From Psammoneis japonica (taxonomy: Eukaryota): a DNA stretch of 64,000 bases. Positions 1-54,619 of this stretch are shown here, piece by piece. A program made the position numbers and the translations under genes. Location of the stretch: positions 186,001 through 250,000 of the forward strand of contig QPGO01000002.1 of the NCBI GenBank assembly GCA_008632985.1. The letters run 5' to 3'. Each line of letters opens with the position of its first letter. Position 1 is the first letter of the stretch. The notes under the pieces are model-generated. The model did no database searches. It worked only from the letters and a program-made list of their open reading frames with translations, and had not been told where the DNA came from.

Positions 1-3000
1 CAATGATTGAAATTTTTTGACACGCGTGCTGATTGCATCCACAGATCTTCAACACACACAATTGCCAATTTTGTTTCTCAGTGGTCATTGAGCCACAAAC
101 AAACAAATCTTTTTTGTTTGTTTTGAGCTACCTGCGTGGCTCATTCTGTCCACATTTCAAACACTTGTCAAGAACAGTTTCTTTTTTTTTTCTTCCACAT
201 GTCCGATCTCTGCCTTTGTTTTAAGTTGCATGTGTGGCTCACATGAGTGTTCTCTCTGTGTGCTGCAGTTTGCTGGTTCATTCTGTTGTGGCAAAGGGAA
301 GTGAGCTTGGCAACATGTTTCTGAAAGGCGCACTTGAGCAAGCTTTGCACAGTGCGTCAGTTGACAAGACTTTTGAGACACAGCACCTTGTGACTTTGCT
401 CTTTGAAAAAGCTGTTCTCATCATTGCAGCAATGGTTTCCAGTGCTTGGAGCCTGGCAGAGAGAACTGCCTGTGCACTTGCCAAGCCCTGGATCAAGGGT
501 GGCACCAACTGTGCTTGTTGACTCTTGCTGTTGCTCATGCTCTCAACGTCCTTCTGTGCAGCAGATGCTTCCTGGACCATTGCACAGAGTGCTCAGTCTG
601 CATCATTGACAAACTGCACTTCAATCTGTGCATGCAAAATGATGAAAGTGGGTGTCCAACAGAAGGGTTCTGGCCAGCTGTTGTCATCTGACTGTTGCTG
701 GCAGCATTTTCTGCAGTTTGGCTCCAATCTTGGAATCATTGGCCACTTGAAAATGCCTCTTTACAGACAACATCAACAAATTGAGTGGTGCTCCAAACTG
801 GCATGTTCACAGGATCCGATGTCCAACTGCCTGTGGCTCCTCAGGAACTTGCAAGAATTTTTGACACCTGCCAAAACTGCCCCAGGATGGTCCCCTCAAG
901 TCACAGAGGGTGGTGTTTGGGCCACTGGTTGAAACTTTTGGATGAAAGGACATTGAGCCAATTTGGTTGTTGCAGATGATCATGACAAGCAAGCATTGCC
1001 ACACTTGCTTTTGTTTGTGCATGGAAAACACTGCCAAAGAAGAAAGAGCTTGTGCCTTTCCTTTCATCTTCATCAAACATGTCATCCAAGGCATGGGCAC
1101 CCACACAATGCACTCCACTTTGGACCTGAAAAGCATTTGCTGAAGTGTTGAATGCAAAAGAAACAAAGAAATTGAGTGAAAAGCTTGGATGATGATCAAA
1201 GGCATTGAATGAAGATGGCTTTCTTTGGGACACACACCTTGTGATCACAATGGTGTTCCAACATGCTCTCCAGGCATTTCTTGCACTTGGTGTTGAATGT
1301 TGCCACCACAGCAACCAATCCCATGGTCAACTTGAGTTCTGTTGTGTGCCTGCATTGTGGAAAGAAAAAGAATTGATTTCATGGGTTGTGGGCATTTTTG
1401 TCAAAAATCACAGCAATGGCCATGCGGACGTGGCCCAAAAGCACCATGTTGGGTCACCTGCTGTGTGGCTCATTTTGTCTTCATTTTGAATTTGTGTCAA
1501 GAAAAGCTTCATTTGTTTTTTTGCCTCCATTTGTCAGATCTCTGCTTTTGTTTTTTAGCCACCTGTGTGGCTCATTTTGTTCTCATTTTAAACCTCTCAA
1601 GAACAGCTTTGCTCATTTGTCTCCTTTTCCTTCCATTTTGTCAGCTCTCTGTCTTTGTTTTGCTCTGTCTCTGCTGCACCTGTCCTTTTTTCCTGCTGGA
1701 CGCTGCACAACTCATCCTCCGATCTGACACCCACCAACAACAATGGCATGCCCCTGTCACAATCCACTTTGTTGTCCAGGTCAGACATGCAACAATGACA
1801 AGCAACAACAACAAACATGCTCTCCAAAGACACCCTCATCTCCAGTGCTCTTCTTTCTCCATTTTGGCCCACACCCTGACAATGACTTTGGGAGAAGCAC
1901 ACCCCCAGTGCTGCAGGAAGAGAAGAGCACTGGGAACAGCAAAAAGAGCAGCTTAGATTTCAACTTGCCAAGGCATGGTCTTTGCATCTCATGAAGTGAG
2001 CAATGGTGCCACTGCTTGGAAAGCCACTGCCAGATGACAGAGGCAACTGGAAAGATTGTCTCATCTTCTTCCCTGTTGCCATTGCCTCAAATGAAGACAA
2101 TGGCCAGAGTTTGTCAGCCACACATCCTCAGCTCCAAGGGGTTTGTTCTGGTGTTGAGTTTGATGACATGTGTTGGGGACTCCAATTGGAGCAACAGGCT
2201 TGCCGGGTGGATGGCGCATGATGCACAGGCCAAAAACACTTGAGAAGATAAAATGGAGCAAACGGTGGTGCCCCCATGTCCCAGCAAACATTTTCCAAAT
2301 GCCAAGCCAGATCATTGTCATCACCACAAATGCACATTGGCTTGAGTTGCTGCTGCCTGCATGATGCTCACCACCCCAAATGCATTCAGTCTGCATTTGT
2401 TGAGTGGGTTGGCCCAGCTGTGGTGACTTTGCACTTTTGATTTGGGAAGCTGCCAGCCTTGTCTTGGGCAGCAGAAGCCCCTTGCATGATTCCTCCGCAA
2501 ACAAGAAGATGCCCAGCTGCACAAGGTGTGGAAGCATGAGGCCCACAGATGCAGCAAAGGAGATGTGCAGTTGTCTCACGATGGCATTGGAGGACTCCAG
2601 TGGGTCACCAGGGACACTCCAGCAGCCTTGGTTGGGGAGCAAATGCCTTGTCTTGTGTCAATGCAGCACCTTGTCTCTGTGACATGACTGGCTTTGGCCC
2701 ACAGCCAGAGCCAGCCTGTGAGGGCTGGAAAACCATCTGTGCAACTGCACAAGTGCTCCGTTGTCTTGGGATGGCATTGGATGACTCCATTGGGTCTCAG
2801 AAGATGCAATGACAACAATGGTTGGGAAGCAAAGGCCTTGTCTTGTGTCAACACAGCACCCTGTCTCTTTGACATGACTGGGTTCTTTGGCCCAGCCACT
2901 CCACCTGCAAGGACAAAAAAAACATCTGCGCAACAGCGCAAGTGCTTGGTCATTTTGGGATGGCTTTGGTGACTCCATTGGGTCCCTGAGGAGCCAACAA

Positions 3001-6000
3001 CAACAATGGTTGGGAAGCAAAGGCCTTGTCTTGTGTCAATGCAGACCTTTGTCTCTCTGGCATGACTGGGTTTGGCTTTGGTGCCACCCCACCTTCAGAG
3101 ACAAGAAAAACATCTGTGTGCTCAGTTGTCTTGGGATGGCTTTTGGTGACTCCATTGGATCTTAGAGGATGCAACAACAACAATGGCTGGGAAGCAAAGG
3201 CCATGTCTTGTGTCAGTGCAGCACCTTGTCCCTCTGACATCATGGCTGGGTTTGTTGGCTCAGCCAAGAACCAACTTGCAAGAAAGACAAGGGAGCCATC
3301 TGTGTGACAGCACAAGCTCTCAGCTGTGTTGAGATGGGCACAAGAGACTCCATTGGGTTCCCTGAGGAGGCAAGAACAACAATGGTTGGGAAGGAAAAGC
3401 CTGATCTTGGGCCAATGCAGCCACTTTTGTTTCTGATGTGATTGGCTTGCTTTGGCCCAGCCACCCACCTGCAGAGACAAGGGAGCTTTCTACACCCATG
3501 TTGCAGCACAAGTGCCCAGTTGTCTTTGGATGGCATTGGGTGCCTCCATTGTGTCCCAGGGGAGCCAACAACATCCAGCGCAGGGAGTCAGTGAATGGAA
3601 ATTCATGGTGTGGTTCCCTGTCTCTTGTTTTTGTGAAAAACCAAGAGAGAACAGAAGAGAATGACCCGCCATCAAGTTGCCCACTTTCTTTTGTGGAGGT
3701 CACTTCTGTGACACACTGGAGTCATTGTGACTCCAAAATTGTCACTTCACTGGCATGAAGGGTCTCCTGTTTCTGAGCTTTCTGGAAGAGGCGATTGTCT
3801 TTTGTTGGCAGCAGCATCACACCAAATGGCAAAAAGGTGTTGATTGAATGAAGTCCAGGAGCTGGGAGTGTGCAGTTTGAGTGTGAAAATTTCAAGAACA
3901 ACAAGAGCGCATCAATGTGACAAAAACAAACTTGTTGATTGCACGTGTGTGACATTGATGAGTGAATGATTCATTTGGGTTGTTTCAAACCATTCAAACC
4001 ATCATCATGTTGCAATGAAATCTTTGATTTTTAGAACAAAGTTGTTGCTGAAGAAGAGATGCTGATGGGAATCAACTGATGGTCAGGCTCACATTTTGGC
4101 CAAAAACACGAACTGTGGCTCCCTCACAAGAGACACGAAAAAATGCAAACTCAATGTCTGACAATGAGAGCAGTGGGGACAGGCAACAGCTGCTGGCAGG
4201 CTGAGGAACAGGAGCAAAATGCATGGAGATGGGCAATGATGGCCGACAGGGGCACACAATGAGCTGCAAAGAGGCAAGGAAGGCAGGTGGCAGAGAGGAT
4301 GAGGGTCTTAAGAAACACAAGACATGCACAAAACCTGGTCATTGGCACAAAGTTTCTCTTGTTGCGGGTGATGGTTTGGCCTGCCAAACAAAGAAGTTCA
4401 AGACAGATGTCATTGTGGAACAATGTTGTTGCCTGGTGTGGACAATCACGGAGAGAGCAAGAGTGGCTGCAAGGGAGGACACAAGGACTGAAACATCACA
4501 CCCATCATGTGGGGACTGCAAAGTGCTGCAGGAGCTGGTGGAGTGCAGGAGATGAACAAAAACAGGAAAAAAGGAGCATTGTTTGGTGCGCAGTGCAGAA
4601 ATGACAAAACAGACAAGTCAGACAATGAGCAGCACACAGCCAACGTGCGGTTGGGTTGACAAGACAATTGAACATCATTGTCAGAAAGTTGTTGCAAACA
4701 CGCGGTTGTTGAGACAGAAACAAGTGCAAGTGATGAGGTGGCAGGGTGATGGATTGGCCGCAGATCTGCTCAGTGCCATTTGGGCCGCAAGCAGCCAAAT
4801 CTTCCAGCATTGGATGCAGTTGAAAATTCACAGCAATGTCTGTCAATCTGTGGCATCCAAAGATTTGACTCTTGCTGTGCATTTGGCAGCAGCAACGCAA
4901 AGTTTGTCGTTGTTGACAACATGCCGGTGTGGCAGCAATGCCAAGGTTCATGTTGGGATTGCAGCTGCACAAAGCATGCATGCTTTTTGTGCTTTAAAAT
5001 CTTGATTTTCCCACACCCACGTGTTCTGCACAATTGCCACATTCAAACAAAATTTTCAATTGCAAAGAACACCAAAACAAATGACAAAGCTCTTCCGTTC
5101 AAACAAGTGCAAACAAATGCGAGCTGTTTTGACTGTGGAAGTTTTGTCCAATTGCGTTGCAAGCCCCAGGACAGCTTGGGGACAACTGCAAAGAGATTTG
5201 TGCCTCGTGCAAACTGGGGCGACATGTCTGAACAGACCAGGGCACCAACAGGGTGCAAAAAAGTTGTGGACAGATGCGCGCATGCTGGGGATGTGTGTGG
5301 AAACCATGGAAGAGCAACTTTTGGCAACAATTTCTAAAATTTCCATCCCATTGAAAGTTTTGCATCGTGCATGGGTTTTGTCAGCAGGGGTGTGCACATC
5401 ATCAATTCATCCGTGTCTAAAGTGGCAAATGTCTGTGGGTCAACATGTGTTGAGCTGAGTCACTCTTCTAAAGTTGCTGACAAAGAGAAATGCCAACATT
5501 TTGTGCTGAAACCATGCAACAATTTTGCACCGAGAAATGTGTGATCAAATGCAAAAATGATGATCATGAAACTTGCAGCTGCACTTGAGTTGAATGGGAA
5601 AAATGCTGGGACAATTTTTTTTGTCCAGCTGGCATGGAAAAAGTCAAATGTGTGGAGCTTGACAACTGGTCAAGGTGTTTTCTGGTTCTCAGTGAGCTGG
5701 TGCTTTGATGAACTTCAGATTGACAGCAGCAGCAATGGAGGAGAGCAACAGATTGAAGATGTTGAGCACATGTGAGATGAATCATGGGTTGCAGTGGCCA
5801 CAAGGCATCTGACAAACTCTCCACATGTGCGCTCCAGTGCAAACTCACAACACCCTCCACGTGCGCAGTCCTGTGCAAACTCACAAAACCCTCCCCCATT
5901 GCAGCCGGCCAATTTTGCTTTTCAGATCAACTGGGGACCTGCCAACTGCAATGCCCCAAGAATGAGAAGACCCCTTGCAGACTGCAAATCCATGTGAAGT

Positions 6001-7810
6001 GTTGCCACAGAGTCCAGATGCAAGAGAGAGTGGGGATGGCCACTTGTCGTCACTTCCTTGCATTTCATTTTGGTGTGGCATTTTTCATTTCATTTTTTCT
6101 GGAGATTGAAAGACATGCTGAGAAATGCTGGATCTGAGTGAATGCAGCCCAGCTCAACAGCCACAGCACCCCCTTTTGTGCTTGGACCTTCCCACACCCA
6201 GTTGACATGGCAGGTCAAGCCTCATCTGACATGCCACAGTGAGCCAAAGAGGCCAAACTTGTGCATTCTTACAAGCAACACATTCCAGCCCTGGGCTGGA
6301 CTCGTGTGGCACTGGGCTCACAGAATTCCATGTGCAAGCACATCTTCAAAATCAAATGAACGACCAAGTTTGTGGTGCAATTTTGTGTCTCTTGATGCTT
6401 GCATTTTTGAAAATCTGGCTGCCTGCCATTCTCAAGACATTTGAGAATGGCGCAGAAGAAAAAATGTCAAAAGGTGTTGAATGGATCACCCAACAATTGC
6501 GCTACAAAATGACACAAAAATTCCACCAAGGCAGTGCGAGGTTCCACCCGGAGCCATTTGTTGAGAAAGACAAGCAACTGGGCAAGCCGCCATCACACAG
6601 CTGTCTTTCCAGCATGGCAAATGCTTGTTCAGCACAGCAGATGAGAGTGGTGTCCTCTGCAGAAAACCACCAATTTGAAGGATGTTCTTCTCTTCCAAGC
6701 ACTGTTGTGGATGCCACGGAAGGTGTGCAAAGCAATGCACACAATGGGAAAAGTGATGCACAGGAACCAGAAAAATTCAAGTCTGAAGCACAAAAAACAT
6801 GCCAGGATCTGCATCAGATCCAACACAGAAAAGGATTGAGCTCACACAAATTTTGTGCCTGTCCAACATGTGTCACTTTCATGTTGCATTTCACATGCAC
6901 AATTTGTCACAGCCTCAGCAGAAAACACTTGTCAATGGAAAAACTTGTGACCTGGAAAAGCCAGCATTGTTTGACACAGATTTGACAAAATTGCAGCAAT
7001 CTCCAGCTCAGTGACACCACGTGTTTGACACAAAGAAAGACACACCAGTTTTTGCTGAGACAGAGCAAGAACAACAACATCAATTTCTGCATGTGTGCGA
7101 GCATCAGCAGCGCTGTTGACACATTTGTCATTTCACTGAAGCAAACCTCCCAACAGGACAGGTTCTCTTTCAGGAATTGACCAACGCGCTCATTGAGTGC
7201 ACAGGTCTGACTGGTCTCCTTCTTTGAATGATGATGACACAGCTCGTCAAAAGAAGCCAGGGCTCTGTGGGTGTCAGGCATTGCTTTGCCAAAAGCAGCT
7301 GCATTGTGGGACAACTCTGGAAAAGCACATCCACATGTTCTTTCCCCAGGGTTTTGTTCATCATGTTTCAAAGCCAGAGGGGCAAGCTGAGAAGCACAAG
7401 CAGACGGGTCTTGCTCAGCTCACCATTTTGGGTCCATGTGCCCAATCTTCCAAGTGGAGACTGGCAGTGGGAATGAAGAAGGCTGCAAGCAAATTTGAAG
7501 TCCACCAGGGACTCATGTTTGCTTTGTGTGTTTCTTGATGTTTTTGACAGTGACACTCTTGTCAAAGATGAAAGATGTCGTTGTGAGCACGTTGATGAAA
7601 GTGGCTTCAAACTTGTGGGAGCATCAAGACACCTTGTCCATGGTGTGGTGGCAACAAAAGCACAGTGTGGCAGGAAATTTGTGGAGCCGGTTGTGCCAAG
7701 GAGATGCCTGGGCAAAGAGACCTCGGCTGGTGCGAGTGCTCAGCAAAGACATGATTTCGGGTCTTTCCCATGCCGACGCTGCCCCATGGCTGGAAGCCAC
7801 AGGAGCTCAA
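1..7810. mobile_element. Degenerate repeat/transposon-derived block, CpG- and TpA-depleted (family not identifiable)
   Basis: TG/CA-saturated sequence; overlapping short ORFs in all frames rich in C/H/Q and almost without Tyr; internal repeats (about 130-250 vs 1455-1620; 2560-3560). Confidence 0.6.
2560..3560. repeat. Diverged tandem repeat, unit about 175-200 bp, about 6 copies
   Basis: Recurring ATGGCATTGG..GACTCCATTGGGT..ACAATGGTTGGGAAGCAAAGGCCTTGTCTTGTGTCA near 2581, 2771, 2960, 3135, 3333, 3529. Confidence 0.85.
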
Positions 7811-7811
7811 C

Positions 7812-8209
7812 TGACGCGTTCCAGACGTAGGTGGGAATCCGTGTGACATTGGGCCCGTAGACTTCTACGTGCGAGCTCCGTAGTAAAATTATACGGTAAT
7901 TAAAATGTCAATGATCGCCAACAGAAAATGAGGCAATTTTGCGAACGCACAAACTCGCCCATGATTGAAGTACATCATTTTTTACTTAGCCAGTTACATT
8001 CTTCAGACATTGAAGAATGTAACTGGCCTGTTATTGTTTCTATAAATTTGTTATATAAAACGTCTGGGGCTTCGCAAGACAGCGAGTCTGGACAATTTTT
8101 TTTTAACATCACACGTAGAAATGTACGTGCAAAATATACGACGGATGATAAAAATGATTTGTGTCACACGTCAGTACTACGAGCTCCCACCTAGGGCTGG
8201 AACGCGTCA
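7812..8209. repeat. Inverted-repeat-bounded AT-rich island (MITE-like, or abutting ends of two elements)
   Basis: 7812-7836 TGACGCGTTCCAGACGTAGGTGGGA is the reverse complement of 8185-8209 at 23/25; further inner inverted motif pairs. Confidence 0.6.
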
Positions 8210-8699
8210 ACTCCACAACACCAAACCAGAGCACCACAAAGCATTGCCTGTCATGGTCCAAATTCTCAGGAACAGGAGGCATCTTTTCCACAAGTAAAAA
8301 TTGGCATCACGAATGAATTGTCATTGTTGTCAACGAATGTCATTTGCAGCATGTTCGAAGCCAAGAAGGCGCGATGTGAGTGGCTTTTTTTTAAATTGCC
8401 TCGGAAGGCAAAAAGCGATGCACAATGGGAGGCATCTTTTCCACATCGTTCAGTCTTGGCACCAGAACCCGGGACTGAATCCCTGGTTTTTGAAATGTGG
8501 GTTTGAACCCCAAAATGAAAACACGGGATTGAAACCCGGGTTTTCATTCACACAGCTTGCAGTGCTTTTTCTGCGTAATTTTGCCATTTCTTAGAACCCA
8601 ACGTGACTTGGCTTCCCAGTTCTTGTGGAAAACAGATCACTTGATCCACTGCATGGCTGCTGCTGCTTGCAATGTTGAACAAAGAATTTGACATTTTAT

Positions 8700-10500
8700 G
8701 TGGTGTTGCTGTCCTGCTGTTCAATGAGACTTTTGATGTGATTTTTGCATTCTGTCTCTTCACCAGATTGATGGTGGTGTCCAATCAGTCTTGCGTTTGT
8801 TTGAAAACAGCTGAGTGTCTTCCCTGCCAAGCCCATGCAACAGTGCATCATGACAGTCAAGGAAACAGGTCTTCTTGCCGTTTGCGCCTGGTTGGCAGGG
8901 AAGTGCAATGGTTTCCCACAGGTTGCAACTCGAGTGCGAGTCCACCCCGCACCAAACACAGACCCTTGGATGCTTGTGGCTGGTGGACACCACATCAAAG
9001 TGACAACGCAAGTGTGCAGACGAGATTCATTTCCACCCTGCTGAGCATGTTGGCATTGTTCCAATGTCACAAAATTGCGAGTCATTGTCGTTTGTTCCGA
9101 AGCCGCTCTTCGTTGATGGTTTTGTTGTGCTGCAACCCGCATCACAGAGTCACCATGGCACAAACGTGCTTCAGGTGATGCTGCAGCATCTGTCTTGAGA
9201 GTTGTTCTCGGAACTCCCAGTGACCCGTTGGACTGTTGTCTTTCCAAGACAAGTCCAACCCGCCCTCCGCCACTTCCAAATGCATGTCATGCGCAATGAC
9301 GACAGCCATGGCCTTGCCGTGGTTCATGCAGAATGCCAATGCTTCCAAGAGCAATGGAACATCTTTGCATTTTTGATGTGATGATCCATTGAATCAATTC
9401 GTGAGCAAGTTGAAAGATGCAGATCACGGGCTTCATGTCATCTCGATTGCCCAGTGTCGCTTGCTCTCATTTCTGCCTCTTTCCTGACGCCTCGCACATT
9501 TGTTGCACTCATTGGGGGCATTCACAGCAGCAATGTTGCACGACGAGGTTGACTAAAATGAGCAAAGCACATGCTGGCATCCCTCAGTGCTGCATGTGGG
9601 TGCCACAGTCTTGACAGCAACACCGGATGATCAAACCTTGCTGCTTTCGATCTTGCATTGGATGGCGTTTGTTTTTTCTGAAAGTGCTTCCCTGGCACAC
9701 CTGAAGGCAGCCGATCCCTTCAACGTGCAAATGTGGCCAAGTGGCCATTTCTCCAATCCAGTCTGAACTGCAGTCATCATCAAAGCAGTTGTCACATGTT
9801 GTGTGTGGCTTTCCTTGGAATGTCTTCTTGGGTCCGGCGTCGTCACCCATTCTGCCAAAATCCGCCATTTGCCTGCTTGTTCCAAGATCATGCAGATTTC
9901 CATCGGGCCCATGGCACCCCATCCATCTGTCCTTGGGTGCAATTTGTGTCGGCGAACATGAGCCCGAGGTCGGATCCGGTGTGCATCTGACGCGATCGCT
10001 GTCTGACCGCCCTTGGTGATGCCGGGCTTTCCAACTGTGCGACCGTCAATCCCGCTGCCAGCTTCCCACAACCCGCATGGCCCCAGGTGGTTTTGTCACC
10101 ACATTGATCCAATTCTGCATGGTGTGTCATCGCATTGACATTGTGAGCTGTTGTTGCGTGTGTCATGTCACACTTGCAGGCCGGGTTGCACCCAGCTTCT
10201 CCTCTTCTGGGGGATGTCATGTTGTTGCACAGCTTCAGCACTCGCTTTGTTTGAAGCCAAAGTGAATGATTGATTGACGAGGATGTGTCTGAGTCGCAGT
10301 GGATCCACCAGCCATCCACCTGCGGTGAATGGCTCCGTCGCTGCCACCCTTGACGCCGTCTTGGACAGTTGCTCCATCAAATCTGAAAAGCTCTGGATGC
10401 TCACAAGTTTGAACTGGTGTCCATGCAAAGAGCACAGCTTCAACTCTCCCGCGGCGTGCAAGTTTGAATCTGTTTCTACTTCGCTGTAGAACGACTTTCT
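8700..10500 (-). mobile_element. Degenerate piggyBac-like DDE transposase
   Basis: Frameshifted minus-strand fragments ELDQCGDKTTWGH, KPGITKGGQ..SDAHRIRPRAHVRRHKLH, KPHTTCDNCF, NHGKAMAVVIAHDMHLEVAEG, WEFREQLSRQML and a Cys-rich C-terminus resemble piggyBac-type transposases (recognised from memory, no search run). Confidence 0.7.
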
Positions 10501-10791
10501 GGGGTCTGAGTTGACACCCGACCGTGTGGTTCACACATTGGCAGAATCAATTGACAGAAAAACAAAGCATCCCGATTTTTCATCCGTTGTTTGAAGGGTA
10601 AACAGTCATTGACATCCCGACTAAAACCTCTGAGNTAATCATCAATGATTATTGGATCTTTCCGTTGAACGGCTGACGGCTACGGTGGTGGAAAAGCCTN
10701 GGACTGAATCCAGGGTTTTTCGGGCGCCCAGACATGAAACTTGGTAACGAATGATGTAAGTAAAATTGCGTGATGGAATGGCACTTTCAAA

Positions 10792-11057
10792 NNNNNNNNN
10801 NNNNNNNNNNNNNNNNNNNNNNNNNNNNNNNNNNNNNNNNNNNNNNNNNNNNNNNNNNNNNNNNNNNNNNNNNNNNNNNNNNNNNNNNNNNNNNNNNNNN
10901 NNNNNNNNNNNNNNNNNNNNNNNNNNNNNNNNNNNNNNNNNNNNNNNNNNNNNNNNNNNNNNNNNNNNNNNNNNNNNNNNNNNNNNNNNNNNNNNNNNNN
11001 NNNNNNNNNNNNNNNNNNNNNNNNNNNNNNNNNNNNNNNNNNNNNNNNNNNNNNNNN
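10792..11057. other. Assembly gap (N run)
   Basis: Continuous Ns. Confidence 1.
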
Positions 11058-27737: not shown

Positions 27738-27879
27738 GAAATTTGCCTTAAAAGTTGACGTTACTAATCATTACAAGCTACACTCCGTCTCTTGTCGTTA
27801 CTTTGTCGCCACCGCTTTCTACACATCCTTGTAATTGCACTTCTTCCTCATCCGAAACCCCTTTTTCTATGCTTTCCAC

Positions 27880-30130
27880 GCGTGCCCAGCCGTGTTTCTG
27901 TCTTGAAACCAGGCTTCAAGAGTTCACGCTGCAGTTTGCACTGTGTGGTCCATCCATTGGCTCCAATGGATGAAGTGGGCAGCACAGCTTCAACCCAATG
28001 CCAGGGTCTTGATGGGTTGTGTTTGAAGTTGACCTGAGAATGATCCACACAACACTGGTGGAAATGAGGGCAAGCGCATGACAAGACATGTCAGTTTGGT
28101 CTTCTGTGCAGATTGTGACCCAAAGCACTGTTTGAACAACATGATGTGTGGCACCCAACGAAGGGGTCATGGCTGGTCATGTGTGAAGCTGGTCACCCAC
28201 ATTTGACATGAGAGCATTGACAGACATCAAGCTGGGGAGTGGTGGAAATGAGTGCAGGTGCAACAGATTTGTCAATGCAGCCTCGCACTCACATCAAAAA
28301 TGTTTTGTCATGAGAAAATTTTGTGTGTGTGGCTGGGGCCAATTGGAGAAATTGGGCACTTGCACAACATGAGAATGATGCACACAAGAAACTTGGGTTT
28401 GGCAAAAATCAGAGCATCAGAGTCTCAGAGAAGTGAGGGGTGTGATGCCATCAAGGAAATCTTGTGTGGCAGCTTGAGTGTGTGCTTCCAGACGGTTGAG
28501 CAGCAACAGCTGTCAGCAGCAAATGCAAACAAAATGTTTGAAGTGGACCCTCTGGATGTGTGCACAGGTTGGTTGGTTTGCAGACAAAATGCTTTGATTG
28601 CTGCAATGGTTGCTCTGGTTGCTCCTGCTGCTGACTGGCTTTTTTGCTTGTTTGAGCCCTTTGGCTTGGGTGAGCGAGTGCCCCCCCTTTGCACAAAGCT
28701 CTGCTCCTGTCCTCTGCTTCTTCCTTGCTCCCATGGAGGTTTTTTCATGTGCTCTCTCTTTCCCTTCCTGGTTCTGCACTTGACCACTTTGCCCTCTCAT
28801 TTCCCCAGGCATTTTTGACCTGCTCTCTTGCATCTTTTTGTCTTGGTTGGCCACTTGGCCAGCTCTCATCATGGGATTTCTTCCAACGACCCCAGCTGGA
28901 GTTCTCCAGTGCTCAACAGACTGAAGGCTCTTTGTTGTTTGCAACAGTGAGCTTGCTTGTGCCAACCCTGTCATCCAACCACTTCTGCTGGGCACAAGCA
29001 GAAAAGAGGCAACATGTCCTCAGGTGTCATCTGCGCGCAGCAAACATGTGCAGGGCGGGAAGGTGGTTGGCAGATGGCTGCAGCATGTGCGTGCAGCCAG
29101 CACACCATCATTCTCTTGTCAACTCATCTGTCCATGGAGCTCAGCAGGTTTGCTCACATTGCACCCTGTTCATTGTCACATGGCCAAAAATGTGCGCTCA
29201 AGTGGCGCAGCCTTGCTGTGCTGCTTGCTTGGTTGAAGAATGGCTGTCCGCAGCAAGTGCAAAGACAAAAAATGTCATTTGAGGTGGACCTTCCAAATGT
29301 GCGGGCAGACCCATTGACTTGCAAACAAAACACTTCAACTGCTGTGGTGGTCACCCTGGTTGCTCCTGCTGCTGCCTTCAGCTGGTGACTTGGAGCCCCT
29401 TGGGTGAGAGAGAGAGAGAGAGAGAGAGACAAGAGAGAGAGAGAGAAAGCCTGCACCCACCCCCACAACATGCTGCCATGCTTTGGCTGCAACAGCAACA
29501 AGCTGCAGTCATCAGACACATGACGTGTCTTGCCTTTTCAAATGATTCAGAAAAAACAGGTGGCGAGCAACAAAGCAGTCCAAAACAATGCAGGGATCAA
29601 CACACACAACACCTTCTTGTTGCTCTGTTGCCTGGTCAAGGTCTTGTGTCTCCTCCTGATTGCTTGGCTTGCTGGCGTGTCATTTTTTGGGATGCTTCTT
29701 TGCATCTCTGTCCATCCCTTCCTTGCTCCCATGTTTGTTTCTCCATGTGCTCTCTCTCTCTCTCTCTGCCTTCCCAGCTCTGTGCTTGAACACTTTGTCT
29801 TTGCTGTTTTCCCCAAGGCGCTCTTGACCTGCTCACATCACTGGCTTGCCCCTGGCTTGGCCAACTCTCTCACTGCAAAGTTTGTTTTCTTCCCAGCGAC
29901 CCCAGTTCTTGTTCTCCAGCACCAACAGACAACAGACCAAAGGCCCATTGTCTCGCTTGCAGCGCGCGCGCAAGACATCCTTCTCTCGTCTATCCGTCTG
30001 TCCACGGGGTTCGGGTTCGCTCACATCACACCGTTCATCGCACCGAACGTGCGTTCGAGTGTCGAGGGCATGCACTCGCATTGCACACAAAAATACAAAA
30101 CGCTTGACACGTTGACAAGACCGGAGAAGC
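27880..30130. mobile_element. TpA/CpG-depleted repeat-derived insert with an internal duplication
   Basis: TG/CA-rich; 28530-28900 resembles 29270-29400 plus 29640-29920; (GA)n at about 29405-29446. Confidence 0.55.
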
Positions 30131-30919: not shown

Positions 30920-31049
30920 ATGATTCATTCTCAGTATTCTGAATTTTCTGTGTAAGTTTGGTTCTACTTTTAAGTTTGTAGCGTTGGGATTGCTCGTCAC
31001 CCTCCATAAGAGGTGTAGTTCGTAGTCCCATTGCCCCATATTGTTTCAA

Positions 31050-31710
31050 AAGTATTTATCATAATGGTAACATGGCATATCATAGTAGTCGGCTTTGCTA
31101 CTCTGCACCGTTAGTCAAAAAAGCCTATAACTACGAATTGTCCGCGTCGGCGAGGAACCGGGCGGTGGTTTGCTGGCTCGAAACAGCCACACGACGTAGC
31201 CTGATGCAATGGGGGAAAGGAAGAATCAAACAGTCATATCTATCCGTGACTTTCTTACCAGAGTCTTTAAGATAATGGTTTGGTTCGTACCAGTTGATGG
31301 ATCATTCATGACCACAGCGCGACACTAGACAAAACAGTTTGAAAATAATTTTATAGTGTGAGGGCGGAAAATCAATGCTGGATGGTTGAGAGTGATAAAA
31401 AGCAACCCAATTCTCTTGCTTGGGGTGCAGCATGTCAGCAAATACTTGAAGGTATGCCCGCCTCTGCCCAACCCAAATCAAACAAGCCTGAAACCCAGAG
31501 AAAACTGCATCAGAACAAGCAAGCTGGTTTTGGCAAATGCTGTGCGGTCACATTGAAAGCATGAAAAGGCCACCCAATTCACTCATCTGGGTGGCACATC
31601 AACTGCTCAAGCTGTGCCACCTCCATTAAACCCAAATGCAATGAGGGCACTCACATCACTGAAAGAAACTTGCCAAATGCCCAAATGGTGGTCGCACACA
31701 AATGTTCAAT
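31050..31710. repeat. Diverged direct duplicate of 39060-39705
   Basis: Shared blocks GCCTGATGCAATGGGG, GATGGATCATTCATGACCA, AACCCAATTCTCTT, GTCACATTGAAA, CAAATGTTC. Confidence 0.85.
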
Positions 31711-34180
31711 GAGCACAGTCCACAAGGGAGGGGGGCGGCAGAATGTTTTGTGGCTCTGTCTCAGGGAGCCAACCCTTGCTTGCCTTGCAAAGCTTCCAGT
31801 GACATTCACCATTCAATCATGTCAGAAAGAGTGCAGAATTTGATGGCTGCACCCCTGAGGAAGGCCACACAATATTCAAAAAAGCACTCTGACAAGACAG
31901 GCGAAGCACTCCATGATGCTCTTGCAGAGGACATCTGCACCATGAAGGGTGCAACCGCCAAGGACAAAGTGGCAGCACCAATGCCAGCAAAGTCAGCTTT
32001 TCATGAAAAAATGCATGGCAATGGACATGCATGATGGGCACAACTGACAGTTCTTGAAGAGCACAACAAAAACTTGGCTCAAAAGGAGCCAGGCCAGTGC
32101 AAGAGCCTGCAATGTCGGAAATGTCGCAAATTGTCATGGAAGTGTGCACTCACTGCCAAAGAACATTGTGGACATTGCAAGCAACTCCAGAGTCCATGAG
32201 GGGCATTGGATCTGCTCATGAGCTGCTCAACATGCAGAGGACAGTGGCACACCTGACACTCTTTTGGGGAATTTGGTGCTTGCAACATGTCAAGCATCTG
32301 GGTTCTGTTGCATTTAATGGTTGCTGGCTTGTCTCTGTTTCATGCCTGTGTTGAGCAGGTTGCACGAACAACAAGGGCGGTCATGAGAATGGACCCAGCA
32401 AGTCACGCCTGGTGCGCACACATTGTTGTCGGAGAGCAACCAAGTTTGGTGACCTCATGTGTCTTGGTGGCAGGGGGGCAATGTCAAAATGGGCTCTTGT
32501 CAGCTTGCAAAGTCAATTGCTTGCAAAAGGAGGGCACTGAAGATTCATTGCATGGCAATGCAAAATTGCATTTGAGAGATGACACATGGTTCTCATGACA
32601 AAATCCACTGACTGGCAAGCAACCTCCAATGTTGAGAGCAGATGACACTCTTCCAGATCTGTTGAATGATTGTGCATCCACAACAGACTTGAAAAGGCTG
32701 TCAACCAAGGAGGCAAAGGCTCATGACATCAGTCTTTTGCATGACAAAGCAAAGCACAAGAGCCCATCTGCTGAAAGAGAGAGACAATCCATGGCGTGCA
32801 ACAATGACAGTGTGGCAAATTGTGTGCAAGCAACACAAGTGGCTCTAGAGCCAACACCCTCATCATCAACCATTGGCCCAGTCAGAATGGCATCTGACAT
32901 TTGACACACACCAAGAGCACAGCATCTCCCAAAGAGCACAGGGCAGATGTCATTGCCATCAAAGCAATTTTTTCCCATTCTTTGGTTTCAACCCTTTCAA
33001 ATTGCTTCATCCAAAGGGTGGCGCCAACAGAGTCGAGGGGAAAAAGATGCCAATTGGACCTGCATCATGTCTTGATCATTTTGAGAACAGCAGTCACCCC
33101 GGTGCTCTTGTCCATTCTTGTGAACAGCCCAAGGAGGAGGAGATGGCAAAAAACGGATTTGGAAAAAGTCAATTGCGCCAAATGCACAAATTGCCAAATG
33201 ATGGGAATCGAACCAGCACGGAGCACCTGGAGCTGGAACAGGCCTGCAATGGACAGCCCAAGGAGGTGATGTCATGGCAGCTGGAGTCCATGCAAGCAAA
33301 ACAGCCTGACAATTGTGGCCAAGGGAGCATGAGGGCAGAAAACTCAGATGAGGTCCCACAAAGAAATGGACGTTGCCCATTGTCAGAAGCAGGGGATTCA
33401 TGTGCAATTGTCAAAAAAACAAAATGACCACATGAGCAATCTGCAACCACCAGCGATGCCCAGCCAAAAAGAAAGCCAGGATGCATTGTTGTCACAAACA
33501 GCACTGCAACAACAACACAAATTGCAATGGCTTGTGTGAAGCATGTGGTGCATCTGATGCACTCTGGTGCAGGACAGTCTGCCTGCATTTTGTGGATCAC
33601 TTGCCAGTGCTTCCTGGCAATCCAAGTGCCAACCATTTAAAAACTCATGTGGAAAAAAGCAGTGGGTTCATTGGGAGACTGCTGATCATCTTGGGTTTTG
33701 AATGGTCAGGTGCTGGACTGATCACCTTGCACAACCTTGACTGCGTTGCAATCAGCACAAAATGGAGCACATGAAGCCAGCAACTCTTGATGTGATGGCA
33801 CCAACATCTGATGGAACGACAGCAATGGAAAAGGTGGCAGTTGACCCCTTGTTGGCTCCTGCAACTCTTGGTGCTTTGAGTTTCAATGCACTGACAAAGG
33901 GCACTCACATGTCCAGCAGAAATGGTGCAGAGCGCGAAAAGCTTTGTTGATGCTGCAATCCCAGATTTCTCTTGTAAAGGAGCAGCTTCTGGAATCATGC
34001 AACTGGCTAAAAAGTTCAAAGCTCAGTGTGTGGGGATGAGACGAGCGCATCCAAGCCACCCAAAATCGATTTGCTCAATTTGAGCCCAATTGAAGTCAAA
34101 TGATGGACTGGATTTGGAAGACTTAAAGTGCCTGTTGTGCTGCAGCATCATTTGTTGTGAGGGCAACTTTGACGAGATGG
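31380..34180. mobile_element. TpA/CpG-depleted degenerate block
   Basis: Same composition as 1-7810; Tyr-poor spurious ORFs. Confidence 0.5.
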
Positions 34181-39059: not shown

Positions 39060-39705
39060 AAAGTAGTCATGATAATGGTAACAGATTATAACGCTCGAGT
39101 TTTTGCTTTGACGGTGAGTCAAAACAGTCTCTAACTGCGACTCCGTGACGGCGAAGAACGGGACTTTGGTTGGCTGGCTCGCAACAGCAACAGGACGCAG
39201 CCTGATGCAATGGGGAAGGAGGAATTTCTCACAGGAGAGTCTGAACGATGATGGCTTGGGTCGCACAAGCAGATGGATCATTCATGACCATAGCGCGACA
39301 CTCTAGAGAAATCAGGTCGAAAAATGCAGCAAGCGGGCGGAAAATATATACTAGACGCTTGAGAGTGGCAAAACGTAACCCAATTCTCTTACTTGGGTGT
39401 ATTTCAGCAAGCGCTTGAAGCATGCCCACATCTGCCAAACCCAAATCCGTCGAGAGTACTCGCATTCGTGCCGTGAAATATGCATGAAACCGAGAGAAAA
39501 AATCACAAGGATAGAGGGCTGGTTGACATAAGTGCTGTAGTCACATTGAAAACATTAAAAGCCCATCCAATTCACTTATCTGGGTACCACAGAAAATATT
39601 AAAGCCATGCCTCCTCCATCAAACCCTAATGCAAAGAGGGTACCCCCATCTCCGAAGAGAACTCGTTATTCGTCCAAACGGTGGTCGTGCGCAAATGTTC
39701 CAGCT
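39060..39705. repeat. Unmutated paralogue of 31050-31710 (possibly a decayed minus-strand coding segment)
   Basis: See 31050-31710; retains TpA and CpG. Confidence 0.8.
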
Positions 39706-45839: not shown

Positions 45840-47400
45840 GATTTCCATGTCATTGGCGATGTCAACCCATGCCGCTCACTCGGTGTTTGCCATTCAGCTT
45901 TTAGCAGAAGTGCATTCTCAAACAGCAGCTTTCATAAGCTCCATAAGCTCTGTGGCATGGGGTGACAAACAAACGGCTTCCACGAGGCACTCATCACCAA
46001 CACTTCCCTCCACAGCATGGTGCAGGTGGCTTTGAGGGTGCAAGCACTGGCGAAATGCCGGGCTCCAATGAAGATGACTGTGCCAACACCATCCAGTCCT
46101 TTCTTTAAAAAAAAGCTGCTGTGCTCATGCAACGCAAGTGGAAATCGATCCAGCCATGTGAGCGAGCAAGATGCAAAAGAAAACAAAACAGAGCAAGTGC
46201 GAGAGTGCCTTTTTTAAACACCGGCGCAAAGCCATGTTGGCCAGCAGAAATGTGGAGGAAGAGTTACAAGACACAAAGGGTCAAGCCTGTCCTCACAGAA
46301 TGAGCAGGTGCTGCATGTGCAATCAAGAAAATTCATGCACCAGGCAAATGTTGCTGATTGCCATTTTGGCGCCACCTCAATCGCTTCCTTTTTGGCAATC
46401 ACAAGCCAACATAAATGCCGCAGCTGGTTGTGGCTTTGTGATGGGGCATTGGGTGCTTTCAGCCAATCTGGATGAATCCTGATTCGCCCATCTCTGTGTC
46501 TTCAGGCTGCACTTCTTTTTGAACCGTGCCTGTTTGACAACAATTTTGTCAAGGCAAAGGCAGGCATGATGCAGAGTGTCTGCCAAGAGCTCATGGTCTT
46601 TGAGGCCAATTTCACATTGAGTGCATTGGCAGCAAACTGAGTCAGCACAGAGTTGAGATTCTTTGTCAACTCATTCAACTGTTTTTTTCCAAATCAGAAC
46701 CTGCTCCACTTTCAAACTTCTTGGTGCACTTGTTGCAACCAAGACAAGGGATTTGAATTTGTGCTGGAGATTCATGGTTCATGCTAACAGTGCTGCTGCA
46801 ATCAAGTCTTCTTCCCCTGAAAAAGGGAGCACAGATTGTTGGTGAAACGTCAACAATGTGCTTTGCCACCAGCCTTGCAAGAAAGTGGCTTTCAAAGCCC
46901 CAGGGGAAGGCAGTCATCAATTTGTGGCAGATTTGGACAACCACTGGCATCCTGGAAAGTTTCTCATCATGCTTGCATTGACAAACTTTTGTGTCGCTGC
47001 TTGCCAAATGGCAAATCCTCTGAGCTTTTGTGGTGGGTGCAATGAGTGGCCACCTGAGCATTTGTTTCATTGTTGTTCCAGTGGCAACACAACTGGGCAC
47101 AATGCTTCCAGTGCTGCAGGCATGCCTTCACATGTGGAGCTGAGGGTGTGCAAGGCTGCAAGGCTGTGCATTCCTGCTTGCCAATGGCACTGATGCAGTC
47201 ATGCCTTACAAACTTGACCACATCAACTGCAGATGCCAACTTGAGCATCAATTTTGCCAACAATGGTCTCTTGCCAATTTTCCCAGCACTTGGGATTGAA
47301 TGCCTTTTTCATGCTTTTTGCTGCTGTGCCTCTGCTGCCATTTTTGGCAGCAGCCCAAAGCCCCAAAGAGGACAAAGGGGGGAGATGAAGTCCCCAAGCC
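45840..47400. mobile_element. TpA/CpG-depleted degenerate block
   Basis: Abrupt compositional switch near 45840. Confidence 0.45.
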
Positions 47401-47410
47401 CTCTCCAGAT

Positions 47411-48780
47411 GCTCTCCTGTTGAGCTCCATTTTGCCATCGTCATCAAGCAAAGATGGAAACTGTCACAAATTCCTTTGAAGATTGAGAACAAAATGCACA
47501 ACAATGTGATCAAGAAGTTTCACCACAGAAGCAATCACAGGCCACAGGCATGGCTGGTCGCATCAATGCCAGCATGCGCACACCCTGAGAAACATTCCAA
47601 GAAGGAACAATGAAGTGCAAAATGACATCGAGTGTCGACTTCCTGTTGTTCAGCATTCTGAGCCTTTTTGGTCACATCAGAGCATCCACTCTTGCAGCAA
47701 GGACCAATGACAGCTGATGATCAGACAGTGACCCATCACTTGTGCAACCGCCTGTGCTCACCTGAGAACTGCCACTGGCTGCTCAGGATGCAATGACCCT
47801 CATTCCTTGTTTTCTCCTCTCTTGATGAAGTCCCAAAGCCCTGGGTCATGCTCCAGGAATCCAACAAAAATGCAAGCAATGCTCTCCTGTTGAGCTCCAT
47901 TTTGTCGTCATCATCAAGCGAAGACTGCAACTGTCGCGGATTCCTTTGAAGATTGAGAATGAAATGAACGACAATGCAAGCAAGAAGTTTCACCGCAGAA
48001 GCAATCAGGCCACGGGTGCGGCCAGTTGCATTGGTGCCAGCATGCGTGCCCCGAGAAACATTCCAAGAAGGAACAATGAAGTGCAACATACAATGTCGAG
48101 CATCGACTTCCCATTGTTCAGCATTCTGAGCCTTTGCGGTCACATCAGAGCATCCACTCTTGCAGCAAGGACCAACAACAGCTGACAATCAGACAGCAAC
48201 CCAACACTTGTGCATCTGCCTGCGCTAAAACCTGAGAACTGCCACTGGCTGCTCAGGATGTGATGATGCTCATTCCTTGTTTACTTCCGTCTTGACGAAG
48301 TCCCAAAGTCCTCCAGAGGTCATGCTCCATGAATCCAACAAAAATGCAAGCAATGCTCTCCTGTTGAGCTCCTTGTCGTCTTCGTCATCGAGCAAAGACG
48401 GCAACTGTCATGGTGTCCTTTGAAGATTGAGAACAAAATACAAGAGGATGCAATGAAGGAGTTTCATCAAAGAAGCAATCAGGCCACGGGTGTGGCTGGT
48501 CGCATCAATGCCAGCATGCGTGCCCCGAGAAATGTGCCAAGACAGAAAAACAATGCACAGCGTCACATCAAGTGTCAACGTCCCATTGTTCACATTGTTT
48601 GGAGCCTTTGTGGGCATCTCAGAATGTCCCCTCTCACAGCAAGGGCCAACGACAGACAACAATCAGACAGTGCTGTAGCCTGAAACTTGCACGTCTGCCA
48701 GGCTCACATGAGAACTGCCACTGACTGCTCAGGATGCAATGATCCTCATTCCTTGTTTTCTCCTGTCCTGATGAATTGCG
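47411..48780. repeat. Tandem repeat, about 470 bp x3, overlapping the 3' end of the LRR gene
   Basis: GCTCTCCTGTTGAGCTCC at 47411, 47881 and 48355; CTCATTCCTTGTTT near 47799, 48269 and 48745. Confidence 0.9.
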
Positions 48781-50088
48781 GATTGTTCATCAAGAACCAA
48801 AACATGAAGTTCTCATTGCTGCGCGGACCTGCCAAGACGTGCGGCCAAAGAGCTGCAGGTGCGTCGTGGCGATGCAGCAAGTGTCTTCCTGCTTTGTTCA
48901 TTTGAATGCAGCAATCTACTTCAGCTTGCATCTTGTCTTGCGGCTTCTTGCGCATCGGCACAACAGCACGTTCAATGGAGTGCAACGCATCTCCAATGTC
49001 CTTGGGTGTGGTTGTGAGCGACGAACAACCATCCAAGTCTAGATGACAAAGACTCGGAAGCTCAAGAATTTCTTTTAGAGTTGCAGTCAACTGCTCGCAC
49101 CAAAGTTCCAAGTGCTCCAACTTTGTGAGCAATCCCAGCTTGGGAGGCAGCTCAACCACTTCGAAACACGAGGTGACATCTGACGCAGTGAGATTGACCA
49201 GATTGCTCACGGCGTTTTGCAAGAATTCATCCAAGCCGTGGACGCGGTTTGGAAGTGTGAGTTCTTGCAGCTGTGTCAGCTTCCCAATCTCAATCGGCAG
49301 TTTTGTGAGTTTCTCGCAATGTCTGAGATTGAGTTCCTCAAGTTGCTGTAACTTTCCAATTTCAGGGGACAAGTGAGTGAGGGAGTTGCACTCACGCAAA
49401 TGCAGCTCCTCCACCAAGTTTGTCAATTGCCCCCATTGATCTGGAACCTGTCCAAGAATTTTGCACTCTGGAGTGTGGTGTCTCAGTTGCTGCAGCTCTC
49501 AGATCCCCACTGTTGGCAACTCTTCGAGGCTTTCGCATTCGAAAATGATCAGGAGTCTGAGTTGTGTCAACCACCCAATTCCCGCGGGCAAACTTTTGAA
49601 AGCCCTGCAAGTTTGCAAGTTTAGCTCCTTCAACTTTGTCAAACTGCACATTTCGTCGGGCAGTGTAACAAGGGTGTTCGTGTCACATAAATTGAGTGCT
49701 TTAAGTTGCTGCAGCTGCCCGATTTCAGGTGGGACCCACTCAAGCCCGATGCAGCAGTCCAAGGTCAAAACGACAAGTCGATGCAACAAGCCAATTTTGC
49801 GCGGAAGCTCAGCCACAATGCCCGAGCTCAAACTCAGTTTTCTTGCATTGACACACTTTTTGTGACCTTGTTCATGATCACCGTAAGAGACACAATCGCG
49901 GTTTTCTGACAACGACCGCTTTGACTCTCCCGTGGCTTGTGTCAACGCAGCGAATGTTCGGTCGGAAAGACGATCGTCGTCGTCGTCCACATTGTTGTTG
50001 TCTTGTTCCCTTGGAAACGCATTGTGAGAGCAAGGCACCCACTTAAAGCGAGCGTGTTGATAAAAGAAAAGCGACGATTTCAAATGCC
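48746..50088 (-). pseudogene. Leucine-rich-repeat protein, frameshifted and hypermutated
   Basis: LPxEIGxLxxLxxLxLxxC repeats in two frames; C-terminal MNKAGRHLL..LWPHVL motif; no Tyr in the last 226 aa. Confidence 0.85.
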
Positions 50089-50432
50089 ATTCACCGACCG
50101 CTGTGGGCCATCGTCGACAGCGATGAAATCACTGTTGTACCGGCTACTCTCTAGCAGTAGAGTATTTGGAACATAAAAGAAGCTGACGTCGATTGGACCT
50201 TCTGGGTCTCGTAACATCTTACGTACATGTACAGTACTGTATCCTACTGTACTGTACCGTACTGTACAAGACGCCTCATCGCCGACTCGTTGGACCGATT
50301 CGATTCGATTCGTTTGATTTGACATTCGACTGCGCCGCAACTGCTGCTGAATACTGAATACAGTAGCTAGAGTCTAGCCCTACTCCTCAATGCTGTAGAG
50401 TGCGATCTAATAAAAGTTAATATAGCTCTCCT

Positions 50433-54097: not shown

Positions 54098-54619
54098 GTC
54101 AAGAAAACCATTGGAATGAGAGGGAGCCAGAAAGGCAGGGAGCTGCAATATATATAGGAAAGTAGGAGCTGAGTAGGGATGGCCAGTACTATAGGGTACC
54201 CTCGTTTTACCCAACAGTGTCACTGTGTTTCCCAGCATTATTAAGATTTTTCCTGGACACATTTTCAACCACAAGCACCCAATCAGTCTAGAGAGTGGCT
54301 AATCCGTGAGAAATAGTTCAGCGCATATAAATGACAAGCACTGAGCATGCCATAACGAATACCCTCTAGTGTGGACCCCATTTAAGCAAGAGAGCAGAGA
54401 GCGGTGTGGTACAAAAAAAATTTAAAAAAAAAAAACAGAAACGACGGCATCAAAGTAGACTACGCAATAATACATCGCAAGAGCTACAACCGTCATCGAG
54501 CCCATTGACCTACGTGCGGAAGCAAATTACACACAGACAAAGATTGCCATGTCGTAGAATCCATTGGGAACAATGATCCACAGCACCAGATCTAGCTGGT
54601 TAGATCTGTCCTCCATCCT

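Follow-up and report, generated by a model that had tools for sequence, protein, structure and literature searches.

Regional hypermutation confined to TpA has been reported once before, in a 2026 preprint on a chlorarachniophyte. Its main text describes de novo mutations in two integrated viral regions of Bigelowiella natans mutation-accumulation lines (Mettrop et al., bioRxiv 10.64898/2026.01.13.699255). Of 231 mutations, 230 were A>G or T>C, and all 230 fell on TpA; the rate was ~6e-7 per site per generation, 1,000-fold over background, and was seen in only some lines (10.64898/2026.01.13.699255). An ADAT2-like deaminase was proposed as the agent, and ADAT2 enzymes that edit DNA were cited (10.64898/2026.01.13.699255). 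Here, we analyze a 64,000-bp stretch of the genome of the diatom Psammoneis japonica (GenBank assembly GCA_008632985.1; contig QPGO01000002.1, positions 186,001 to 250,000 of the forward strand), referred to here as the window, in which blocks of DNA have lost nearly all of their TA dinucleotides. We consider it likely that this repeat-rich intergenic DNA was enzymatically hypermutated in place, through domain-restricted TpA to TpG or CpA transitions on either strand. The diatom window shows the end state.

Scans in 1-kb and 250-bp intervals divided the window into two sharply separated sequence states. The gene domains (36,051 bp; 1,520 TA), taken as the reference state, had observed/expected ratios of 0.61 for TA, 1.00 for CG, and ~1.15 for each of TG and CA, i.e., approximately one TA per 24 bp (42 TA/kb). 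The six depleted blocks (1-7750, 8251-10500, 28001-30000, 31501-34000, 46001-50000, and 54751-61500; 2 to 8 kb each), which make up 25,250 of the 64,000 bp, retained 63 TA, with ratios of ~0.03 for TA and ~1.85 for each of TG and CA. Their edges were sharp to tens of bases, and TA-free runs extended up to 2,123 bp. Within the blocks, we distinguished cores poor in both TA and CG (20,000 bp; CG ratio, 0.15) from TA-only zones (8251-10500 and 47501-50000; pooled ratios, 0.07 for TA and 0.60 for CG). Gene-adjoining edges that lacked TA but kept CG were located at 8251-10500, 47501-50000, 29750-30000, and 46001-46250. Assembly gaps (268 N in all) at 10636-11060, the junction of a TA-only zone and the first gene domain, made that edge unreadable. 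The depleted features, to which no strand is assigned, were as follows (window coordinates).

1..7806, no strand: TA/CG-depleted block from which the original prediction, discussed below, was made; continues beyond the window on the left, stops at a young insertion, and is covered by contigs of a public DNA run; per 1 kb, observed/expected 0.02 to 0.05 for TA, 0.08 to 0.29 for CG, and 1.7 to 2.0 for TG/CA

8210..10500, no strand: TA-only zone with CG kept, reaching an assembly gap; 0 to 3 TA and 4 to 13 CG per 250 bp

27869..29990, no strand: TA/CG-depleted block occupying the interval from the dihydroxyacetone kinase gene to the following open reading frame (ORF); a 2,123-bp TA-free run bounded by TAs at 27868 and 29991 and starting 131 bp past the kinase stop (27737)

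31480..34000, no strand: TA/CG-depleted block with its left edge within a repeat copy; last dense TA at 31453, followed by 6 TA up to 33975

46001..50040, no strand: depleted block; core 46251-47500 without TA and CG, 47501-50000 without TA only

54602..61547, no strand: largest TA/CG-depleted block wholly within the window; longest TA-free run, 1,309 bp; per 1 kb, observed/expected 0.02 to 0.03 for TA and 0.0 to 0.21 for CG

The losses were balanced by gains within a small set of dinucleotides. TA, CG, TG, and CA summed to 242.0/kb in the cores and 241.8/kb in the gene domains, and the sum was constant within each flank class; thus, nothing beyond interchange among these four dinucleotides is needed. 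G+C content was unchanged (0.478 in the cores versus 0.473 in the gene domains). Among the other dinucleotides in the blocks, GC was up and AT, GA, and TC were down, all of which are by-products expected from TA and CG conversion. The AA ratio was 1.28 in the blocks, indicating that A was not lost outside TA; only A preceded by T was lost. Two general explanations were rejected on these grounds. Drift does not account for a change restricted to the TA and CG classes with sharp block limits, and GC-biased gene conversion needs context-independent AT>GC changes and a higher G+C content, whereas here G+C was flat and only TA was affected.

We then asked which TA sites remain. According to the original prediction, which was based on the first block, T-A-pyrimidine is erased and YTAR is spared (Y, pyrimidine; R, purine). 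The TAs that it listed as TTAA, TTAG, CTAA, or CTAG were all present with the tetramer given, at 222, 1556, 1589, 1954, 3163, 4032, 4309, 4995, 5335, 5418, and 5469, and the CTAG sites that it placed near 32845 and 60168 were found at 32846 and 60169. Its CTAC, TTAC, and ATAA survivors were likewise present (129, 762, 2249, 6270, and 6503), although one more TA, a CTAC at 3491, had been overlooked. The reported absence of RTAY tetramers (GTAC, ATAT, GTAT, and ATAC) was borne out in 1-7750, where ~327 TA would be expected at gene-domain density and 17 were found (11 YTAR, 5 YTAY, 1 RTAR, and 0 RTAY). The YTAR fraction (11/17) exceeded what would be expected from flank composition within the block (0.329; binomial p = 0.007) and from the contexts of in-block TG + CA (0.232; p = 3e-4).

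The same contrast was observed over all six blocks, in which the 63 TA comprised 33 YTAR, 27 RTAR or YTAY (mixed contexts), and 3 RTAY, compared with 263, 786, and 471 among the 1,520 TA of the gene domains (chi-square, 54.6; p = 1.4e-12). Relative to gene density, YTAR survived at 0.179, mixed contexts at 0.049, and RTAY at 0.009. The count of NTAN tetramers therefore reproduced the anticipated order (RTAY << RTAR/YTAY << YTAR). The anticipated equality of RTAR and YTAY also holds, but it follows from strand symmetry and hence is no test. The opposition of erased and spared contexts was overstated, because YTAR was itself depleted ~5.6-fold and every context was heavily depleted. By single tetramer, survival was best for TTAA (0.35), followed by TTAG (0.20) and CTAA (0.12), down to 0 for GTAC and GTAT. 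It was also nearly multiplicative per strand: with a 3' purine set at 0.42 and a 3' pyrimidine at 0.095, the value predicted for mixed contexts is 0.040.

Should the survivors simply be new TAs produced by ordinary transitions, the relevant null is the one based on TG + CA contexts. In the segmentation into cores and TA-only zones, 31 of the 60 TA were YTAR, against an expected fraction of 0.323 from flank composition (p = 0.0014) and 0.230 from in-block TG + CA context (p = 1.3e-6). The signal was carried by the cores (38 TA; 23 YTAR, 14 mixed, and 1 RTAY). Both strands of the 63 surviving TAs provide 126 A sites for a count of flanking bases. A was present at +2 in 77 of them (61%; 27% in genes and 26% at in-block TG/CA) and at +1 in 64 (51%; 22% and 28%, respectively). 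The spared context is wider than the tetramer, reaching to ±2, and A at +2 protects as strongly as A at +1. Since A is favored at both positions, junctions of T-tracts and A-tracts (TTTAAA-like sequences, an extreme form of YTAR) are best protected.

The products of the conversion carry the same flank dependence. If the A of TAY changes, R-TA-R becomes R-CA-R (a hit on the bottom strand) and Y-TA-Y becomes Y-TG-Y. Relative to the gene domains, the blocks had gained 17.4 CA/kb and 6.1 TG/kb in R..R contexts and 16.6 TG/kb and 3.9 CA/kb in Y..Y contexts, while TG and CA were gained equally in R..Y and Y..R contexts. The ratio (RCAR + YTGY)/(RTGR + YCAY) was 1.62 in the blocks (1,877:1,162), with values of 1.23 to 1.87 across all nine sub-blocks, and 1.12 in the gene domains (0.95 to 1.32 over nine segments); a Fisher test of this difference gave p = 1.4e-11 from input counts slightly off the final totals of the sub-block tally. 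The gene-domain ratio lies slightly above 1 (1.12, to 1.32), which may be a faint genome-wide trace of the bias or a mere composition effect. The asymmetry was also present where CG was kept: in R..R contexts of the TA-only zones, CA rose by 10.0/kb and TG by 2.0/kb for a TA loss of 10.05/kb. Grouped by the base at +1, lost TA had turned to TG on the strand read in fractions of 0.76 (C), 0.75 (T), 0.32 (G), and ~0 (A). This product asymmetry is evidence of flank dependence that is independent of the survivors. The idea of a TA-specific process sensitive to the 3' neighbor is thus supported by survivor contexts and, separately, by the products, and the accompanying preference for enzymatic specificity over drift or GC-biased gene conversion agrees with the composition data given above.

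No coordination along a strand was found among the products. Autocorrelation of TG/CA order was -0.03 to 0.05 at eight lags, as in the gene domains; TG and CA were balanced in every block, and per-500-bp TG/CA skews were mostly within ±0.2.

Repeats and paralogues within the window record how the converted sequences arose. The alignments rest on the following features.

2629..3559, plus strand: degenerate 188-bp tandem array of ~5 copies inside the first block (Tandem Repeats Finder: period 188, 4.5 copies, 73% matches)

39060..39700, plus strand: unmutated paralogue, in a gene domain, of 31049-31707; 68% identity over 691 bp, with TA and CG kept

47409..48830, plus strand: three tandem copies of ~470 bp, mutated independently according to the alignment of copies

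The repeat of ~650 bp is present in two copies, 31049-31707 and 39060-39700, the first of which is crossed by a depletion edge at ~31480. In the depleted part of this copy, the 13 TA of the paralogue correspond to TG or CA at 9 sites and to TA at none, and its 10 CG correspond to TG or CA at 6 sites and to CG at 1. Outside the depleted part, the two copies differ by changes in both directions and have 11 CG in common. Because the edge falls within a repeat copy, the domain limit is positional and is not set by the element.

The blocks contain several degenerate tandem arrays. Over 1,270 aligned positions, the three 470-bp copies differ by 44 TG<->CA doublets, to which 88 of the 173 transitions belong; independence of neighboring transitions would give ~5 doublets (an estimate from the 13.6% transition rate). 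There were also 42 CG<->TG/CA pairs and 2 TA<->TG pairs. The TG<->CA doublets mark ancestral TA or CG sites that were resolved separately in each copy after duplication. In columns mixed for TG and CA, R..Y was the largest class (8/19), from numbers too small to weigh. The 188-bp array, with 28 adjacent TG<->CA double transitions and at most 11 of any other type (10 pairwise comparisons; 1,755 aligned positions), reflects the same independent conversion, more weakly.

These observations bear on an origin at the RNA level, in which repeat transcripts would undergo ADAR-like A-to-I hyperediting and the edited copies would be reverse transcribed and inserted. An A>G change with a 5' U preference does resemble RNA editing, a comparison that the main text of the B. 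natans preprint also draws. Such an origin nevertheless conflicts with the absence of strand coordination (balanced TG and CA, no autocorrelation), with tandem copies mutated independently in place, and with a depletion edge inside a repeat copy, and the Pfam scan of block ORFs described below detected no reverse transcriptase remnant. We regard it as extremely improbable.

Contigs assembled from 31-letter words of a public DNA run, whose library type is unrecorded, cover positions 1 to 10600. Single contigs had word depths of 41 to 57 and lengths of up to 969 bp and showed few differences from the window. In many bins, the summed word depth over numerous related contigs was 100 to 3,600 (versus ~50 for single contigs), indicating that much of the first block is repeated elsewhere in the genome. 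The places that varied in the run comprised 192 transitions and 43 transversions; of the 40 variants listed between copies or alleles, 13 were CG<->TG/CA and 5 were TA<->TG/CA.

This repetition would suit elements that were amplified or acquired free of TA, an explanation that we group with selection removing TA. The stretch 4600-7800, however, has only ~1 to 3 times the depth of a single contig, adjacent copies differ by TG<->CA doublets, and the comparison with the unmutated paralogue contradicts a TA-free origin. Selection against TA, for its part, would not enforce the exact four-dinucleotide sum, which reflects transitions only. Taken together, ready-made TA-free elements or selection are very hard to credit. 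A sequencing or assembly artefact (e.g., misread modified bases) is exceedingly unlikely as well. It gains from the unrecorded library type of the run, which is probably the assembly's own data, but the run's contigs agree with the window, misreads differing between strands would break contigs every ~25 bp, the copies differ by fixed doublets, and the scaffold gaps (268 N) are typical of a short-read assembly.

The first block ends at an insertion that has kept its TA.

7812..8209, no strand: TA-rich element of ~400 bp with terminal inverted repeats of 25 nt (arms 7812-7836 and 8185-8209; 92% complementary)

It contains 29 TA in 7828-8192, and its summed word depth is 133,674 (versus 41 to 57 for single contigs). 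In one contig of the run, the element is missing and 7806 is joined to 8207. This insertion in a TA-free block is young, polymorphic, very abundant, and unmutated and resembles a miniature inverted-repeat transposable element.

CG loss is parallel to TA loss but separable from it and constitutes a second, slower process. At sites with CG left in one tandem copy, the counterparts in the others are 6 CA and 7 TG in R..R contexts and 4 CA and 5 TG in Y..Y contexts. The CG-derived products are therefore symmetric, and CG loss is not the cause of the TA-product asymmetry. CG loss is most likely the decay of methylated CpG. Since TA is gone where CG still stands at 0.60 (TA-only zones), TA loss is faster, or further-reaching, than this decay.

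The pattern might alternatively have come about with no dedicated editor, through a replication or repair bias that depends on context, is peculiar to silent methylated chromatin, and has reached equilibrium over a very long time free of selection. The blocks have no recognizable coding sequence, as fits old DNA, and passive CpG decay accompanies the TA loss. An observed/expected ratio of 0.03, however, needs TA loss ~30 times faster than gain, and TA is already gone in the TA-only zones while CG remains at 0.60. The limits, moreover, are sharp to tens of bases and cut a repeat copy, and the rate given in the main text of the B. natans preprint is 1,000-fold over background and switched on in only some lines. 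We therefore judge such an equilibrium to be quite improbable.

Because the TAA and TAG stops are gone, the blocks give rise to numerous spurious ORFs of considerable length: 25 kb contain 158 with 80 amino acids (aa) or more, the longest being 262 aa. Gene callers would report them as Tyr-free hypothetical proteins, and dinucleotide-based statistics would be distorted too. A Pfam scan covering 150 of the 158 (those of at least 84 aa; eight of 80 to 83 aa were left out) detected no viral or transposon domain and no reverse transcriptase remnant among these 150 ORFs. Two matched leucine-rich-repeat (LRR) families, and three others gave weak matches to unrelated families, below the curated cutoffs.

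48749..50125, minus strand: LRR ORFs with one in-frame stop between them, in a TA-only zone (LRR_14, 3.3e-13 and 3.2e-9; LRR_8, 5.8e-8)

The 250 codons at 48749-49498 include 0 Tyr. The LRR ORFs are probably a host-type gene that was recently swept into the mutated domain; the best relatives are 27 to 51% identical, too distant for a site-by-site Tyr-to-His/Cys comparison.

The gene domains carry host genes with long unbroken ORFs (i.e., dihydroxyacetone kinase, an STI1/HOP co-chaperone, a cyclophilin-type isomerase, and a PAS-domain protein). The best 120 relatives of the dihydroxyacetone kinase are 56 to 66% identical, and the named ones among them are all from pennate diatoms (Nitzschia, Pseudo-nitzschia, Seminavis, Mayamaea, and one Amphi- genus). 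A coding-looking tandem repeat, with one frame rich in Gly, Tyr, Ser, and Lys, lies in a gene domain at 37700-38700, where the TA ratio reaches the maximum of the window (1.27). No TA-free block was found in 47 metagenome loci (265 kb) around relatives of the kinase, a result of little weight because these contigs are short and genic; a single 500-bp interval with a TA ratio of <0.15 lay on a contig of 66% G+C.

We favor site-by-site action on both strands of chromosomal DNA, which would affect only TA and be confined to domains ending within tens of bases of genes. The rate would be set by the base 3' of A (equivalently, the base 5' of T on the other strand), being about equal for T and C, lower for G, and lowest for A; protection would also come from A at +2, and TAs at TTTAAA-like junctions would last longest. 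The sequence shows the conversions themselves, their occurrence in place once local duplications had taken place, their symmetry between strands, their dependence on flanks, and their sharp domain limits. For the agent, we infer an enzyme that works on nuclear DNA and attacks A, not T; the most plausible one would be an adenine deaminase with 5'-TA as its target, converting A to inosine, which is read as G. The enzyme may be directed to silenced chromatin, because CpG decay is co-located with the TA loss, an abundant element is unmutated, and an edge runs through a repeat copy. In diatoms, transposons are described as CpG methylated in PMC9998398.

The same hypermutation could proceed by attack on the T of 5'-RTA-3', e.g., by hydroxylation to 5-hydroxymethyluracil that mispairs with G (T>C), with no adenine deamination. 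All of the sequence results are symmetric under complementation and fit this chemistry equally well. Other protists possess thymine hydroxylases, and hydroxymethyluracil in dinoflagellates has been reported to be enriched at TpA and TpC; to our knowledge, no such thymine modification is known in diatoms. The sole published hypothesis for B. natans, as given in the main text of the preprint, is adenine deamination, and we consider attack on T unlikely.

Several points weigh against the explanation by in-place enzymatic hypermutation. The survivors counted are few (63 overall, 17 in the first block), and the TA-only zones show no significant context bias (22 TA; 8 YTAR, 12 mixed, and 2 RTAY). 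The flank effect is smaller when taken from survivors (roughly 3:1) than when taken from products (at least 8:1 in R..R contexts), and some survivors are therefore probably newly arisen TAs. Two repeats, the element at 7812-8209 and the copy at 39060-39700, are unmutated, so that repetition alone is not the trigger. Targeting of foreign DNA of the B. natans type has no counterpart in the Pfam scan, although heavy degradation could hide the origin of the blocks. The public DNA run is probably from the same sample as the assembly and hence lends no independent support. Finally, an enzyme, a DNA modification, or a de novo event is not observable from the sequence of the window, and attack on A and attack on T are indistinguishable there because TAY and RTA are one site on opposite strands.

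Among known systems, RIP (repeat-induced point mutation), a process of ascomycete fungi, resembles the present pattern in its regional transition hypermutation of nongenic or repeated DNA, its dinucleotide rule, its sharp edges, and the methylation that follows in its products. It is opposite in direction: RIP changes C to T at CpA and thereby creates TpA, whereas here the observed/expected ratios are 0.03 for TpA and 1.84 for CpA. RIP is also triggered by duplication. In the window, the blocks are partly multicopy, yet the abundant 400-bp element and the copy at 39060-39700 are untouched and an edge cuts the copy at 31049-31707; simple repeat-triggering of the fungal kind seems not to fit. 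Diatoms carry RID-related DNMT4 genes, whose function is unknown according to PMC9998398; nothing links these genes to A>G changes.

In the repeats of vertebrates and plants, methylated CpG decays, through deamination of 5-methylcytosine, to TG or CA in silenced DNA, as does the CG described here, with symmetric products, and such decay would account for the CG half of the pattern; copies in the window are still CG polymorphic (13 of the 40 variants listed). This decay is unable to touch TA, the loss of which is separable and, in the TA-only zones, more complete. The APOBEC and ADAR editing of animal retroelements shares deaminase-type transitions and a role in defense against mobile or foreign sequences. 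Those marks are strand coordinated and stem from single-stranded DNA or RNA intermediates, whereas the changes here are uncoordinated and were made in place.

The TadA and ADAT2-3 deaminases, which act on A34 of tRNA, require U or T on the 5' side of the A that they edit, with C at +1 in the case of bacterial TadA. The obligatory 5' T/U of these enzymes and of TadA-derived base editors is matched by the loss in the blocks of only those A preceded by T. The native +1 preference of TadA agrees in part: C at +1 (0.76) is favored here, but T (0.75) is as good, followed by G (0.32) and A (~0), and the UACG motif of TadA does not predict the protection by A at +2. The process in the window would also have acted on both strands of chromosomal DNA over kilobases. 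The flank rule (T ~ C > G > A at +1, protection by A at +2, both strands, uncoordinated) provides a signature for testing candidate enzymes.

A search of titles and abstract openings on diatoms and stramenopiles yielded no description of a TpA-erasing pattern in diatoms, and the closest match is B. natans. As described in the main text of the preprint, mutation there affects TpA only, giving TpG or CpA according to strand, in discrete nuclear regions, and is accompanied by long-term TpA depletion and CpA + TpG enrichment in clusters poor in annotated genes, all as in the window. The hosts differ, one being a diatom (a stramenopile) and the other a chlorarachniophyte (a rhizarian). Depletion is nearly complete here (observed/expected, 0.03) versus a Rho of 0.45 in the nucleocytoplasmic large DNA virus region of B. 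natans, and the targets here are rich in tandem repeats, with no viral or transposon domain in 150 ORFs, versus integrated viral DNA there. CG is lost in parallel in the window; the main text on B. natans is silent on CpG, trinucleotides, context, and diatoms. The flank preference at +1 and +2 described here is likewise absent from that main text, and the supplements may hold flank data. De novo events were seen in B. natans, whereas here the only hint of them is that 5 of the 40 listed variants are TA<->TG/CA.

We read the diatom blocks as the same kind of process as the TpA hypermutation of B. natans, at saturation and with a defined flank rule. With ~40% of the 64-kb window stripped of TA, the comparison suggests a process that is widespread in the SAR supergroup (stramenopiles, alveolates, and rhizarians) and able to shape a large part of a genome. 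As a tentative extension, diatoms may carry a domain-targeted adenine editor of double-stranded nuclear DNA that acts at 5'-TA, prefers a pyrimidine at +1, and leaves A-tracts protected, and that together with CpG decay would form a two-armed, RIP-like defense of old standing in SAR. If so, silenced DNA would lose two stop codons out of three along with its TATA-like elements and Tyr codons, and the presence of the process in both a stramenopile and a rhizarian would mark it as an old SAR system, a natural editor of DNA adenine.

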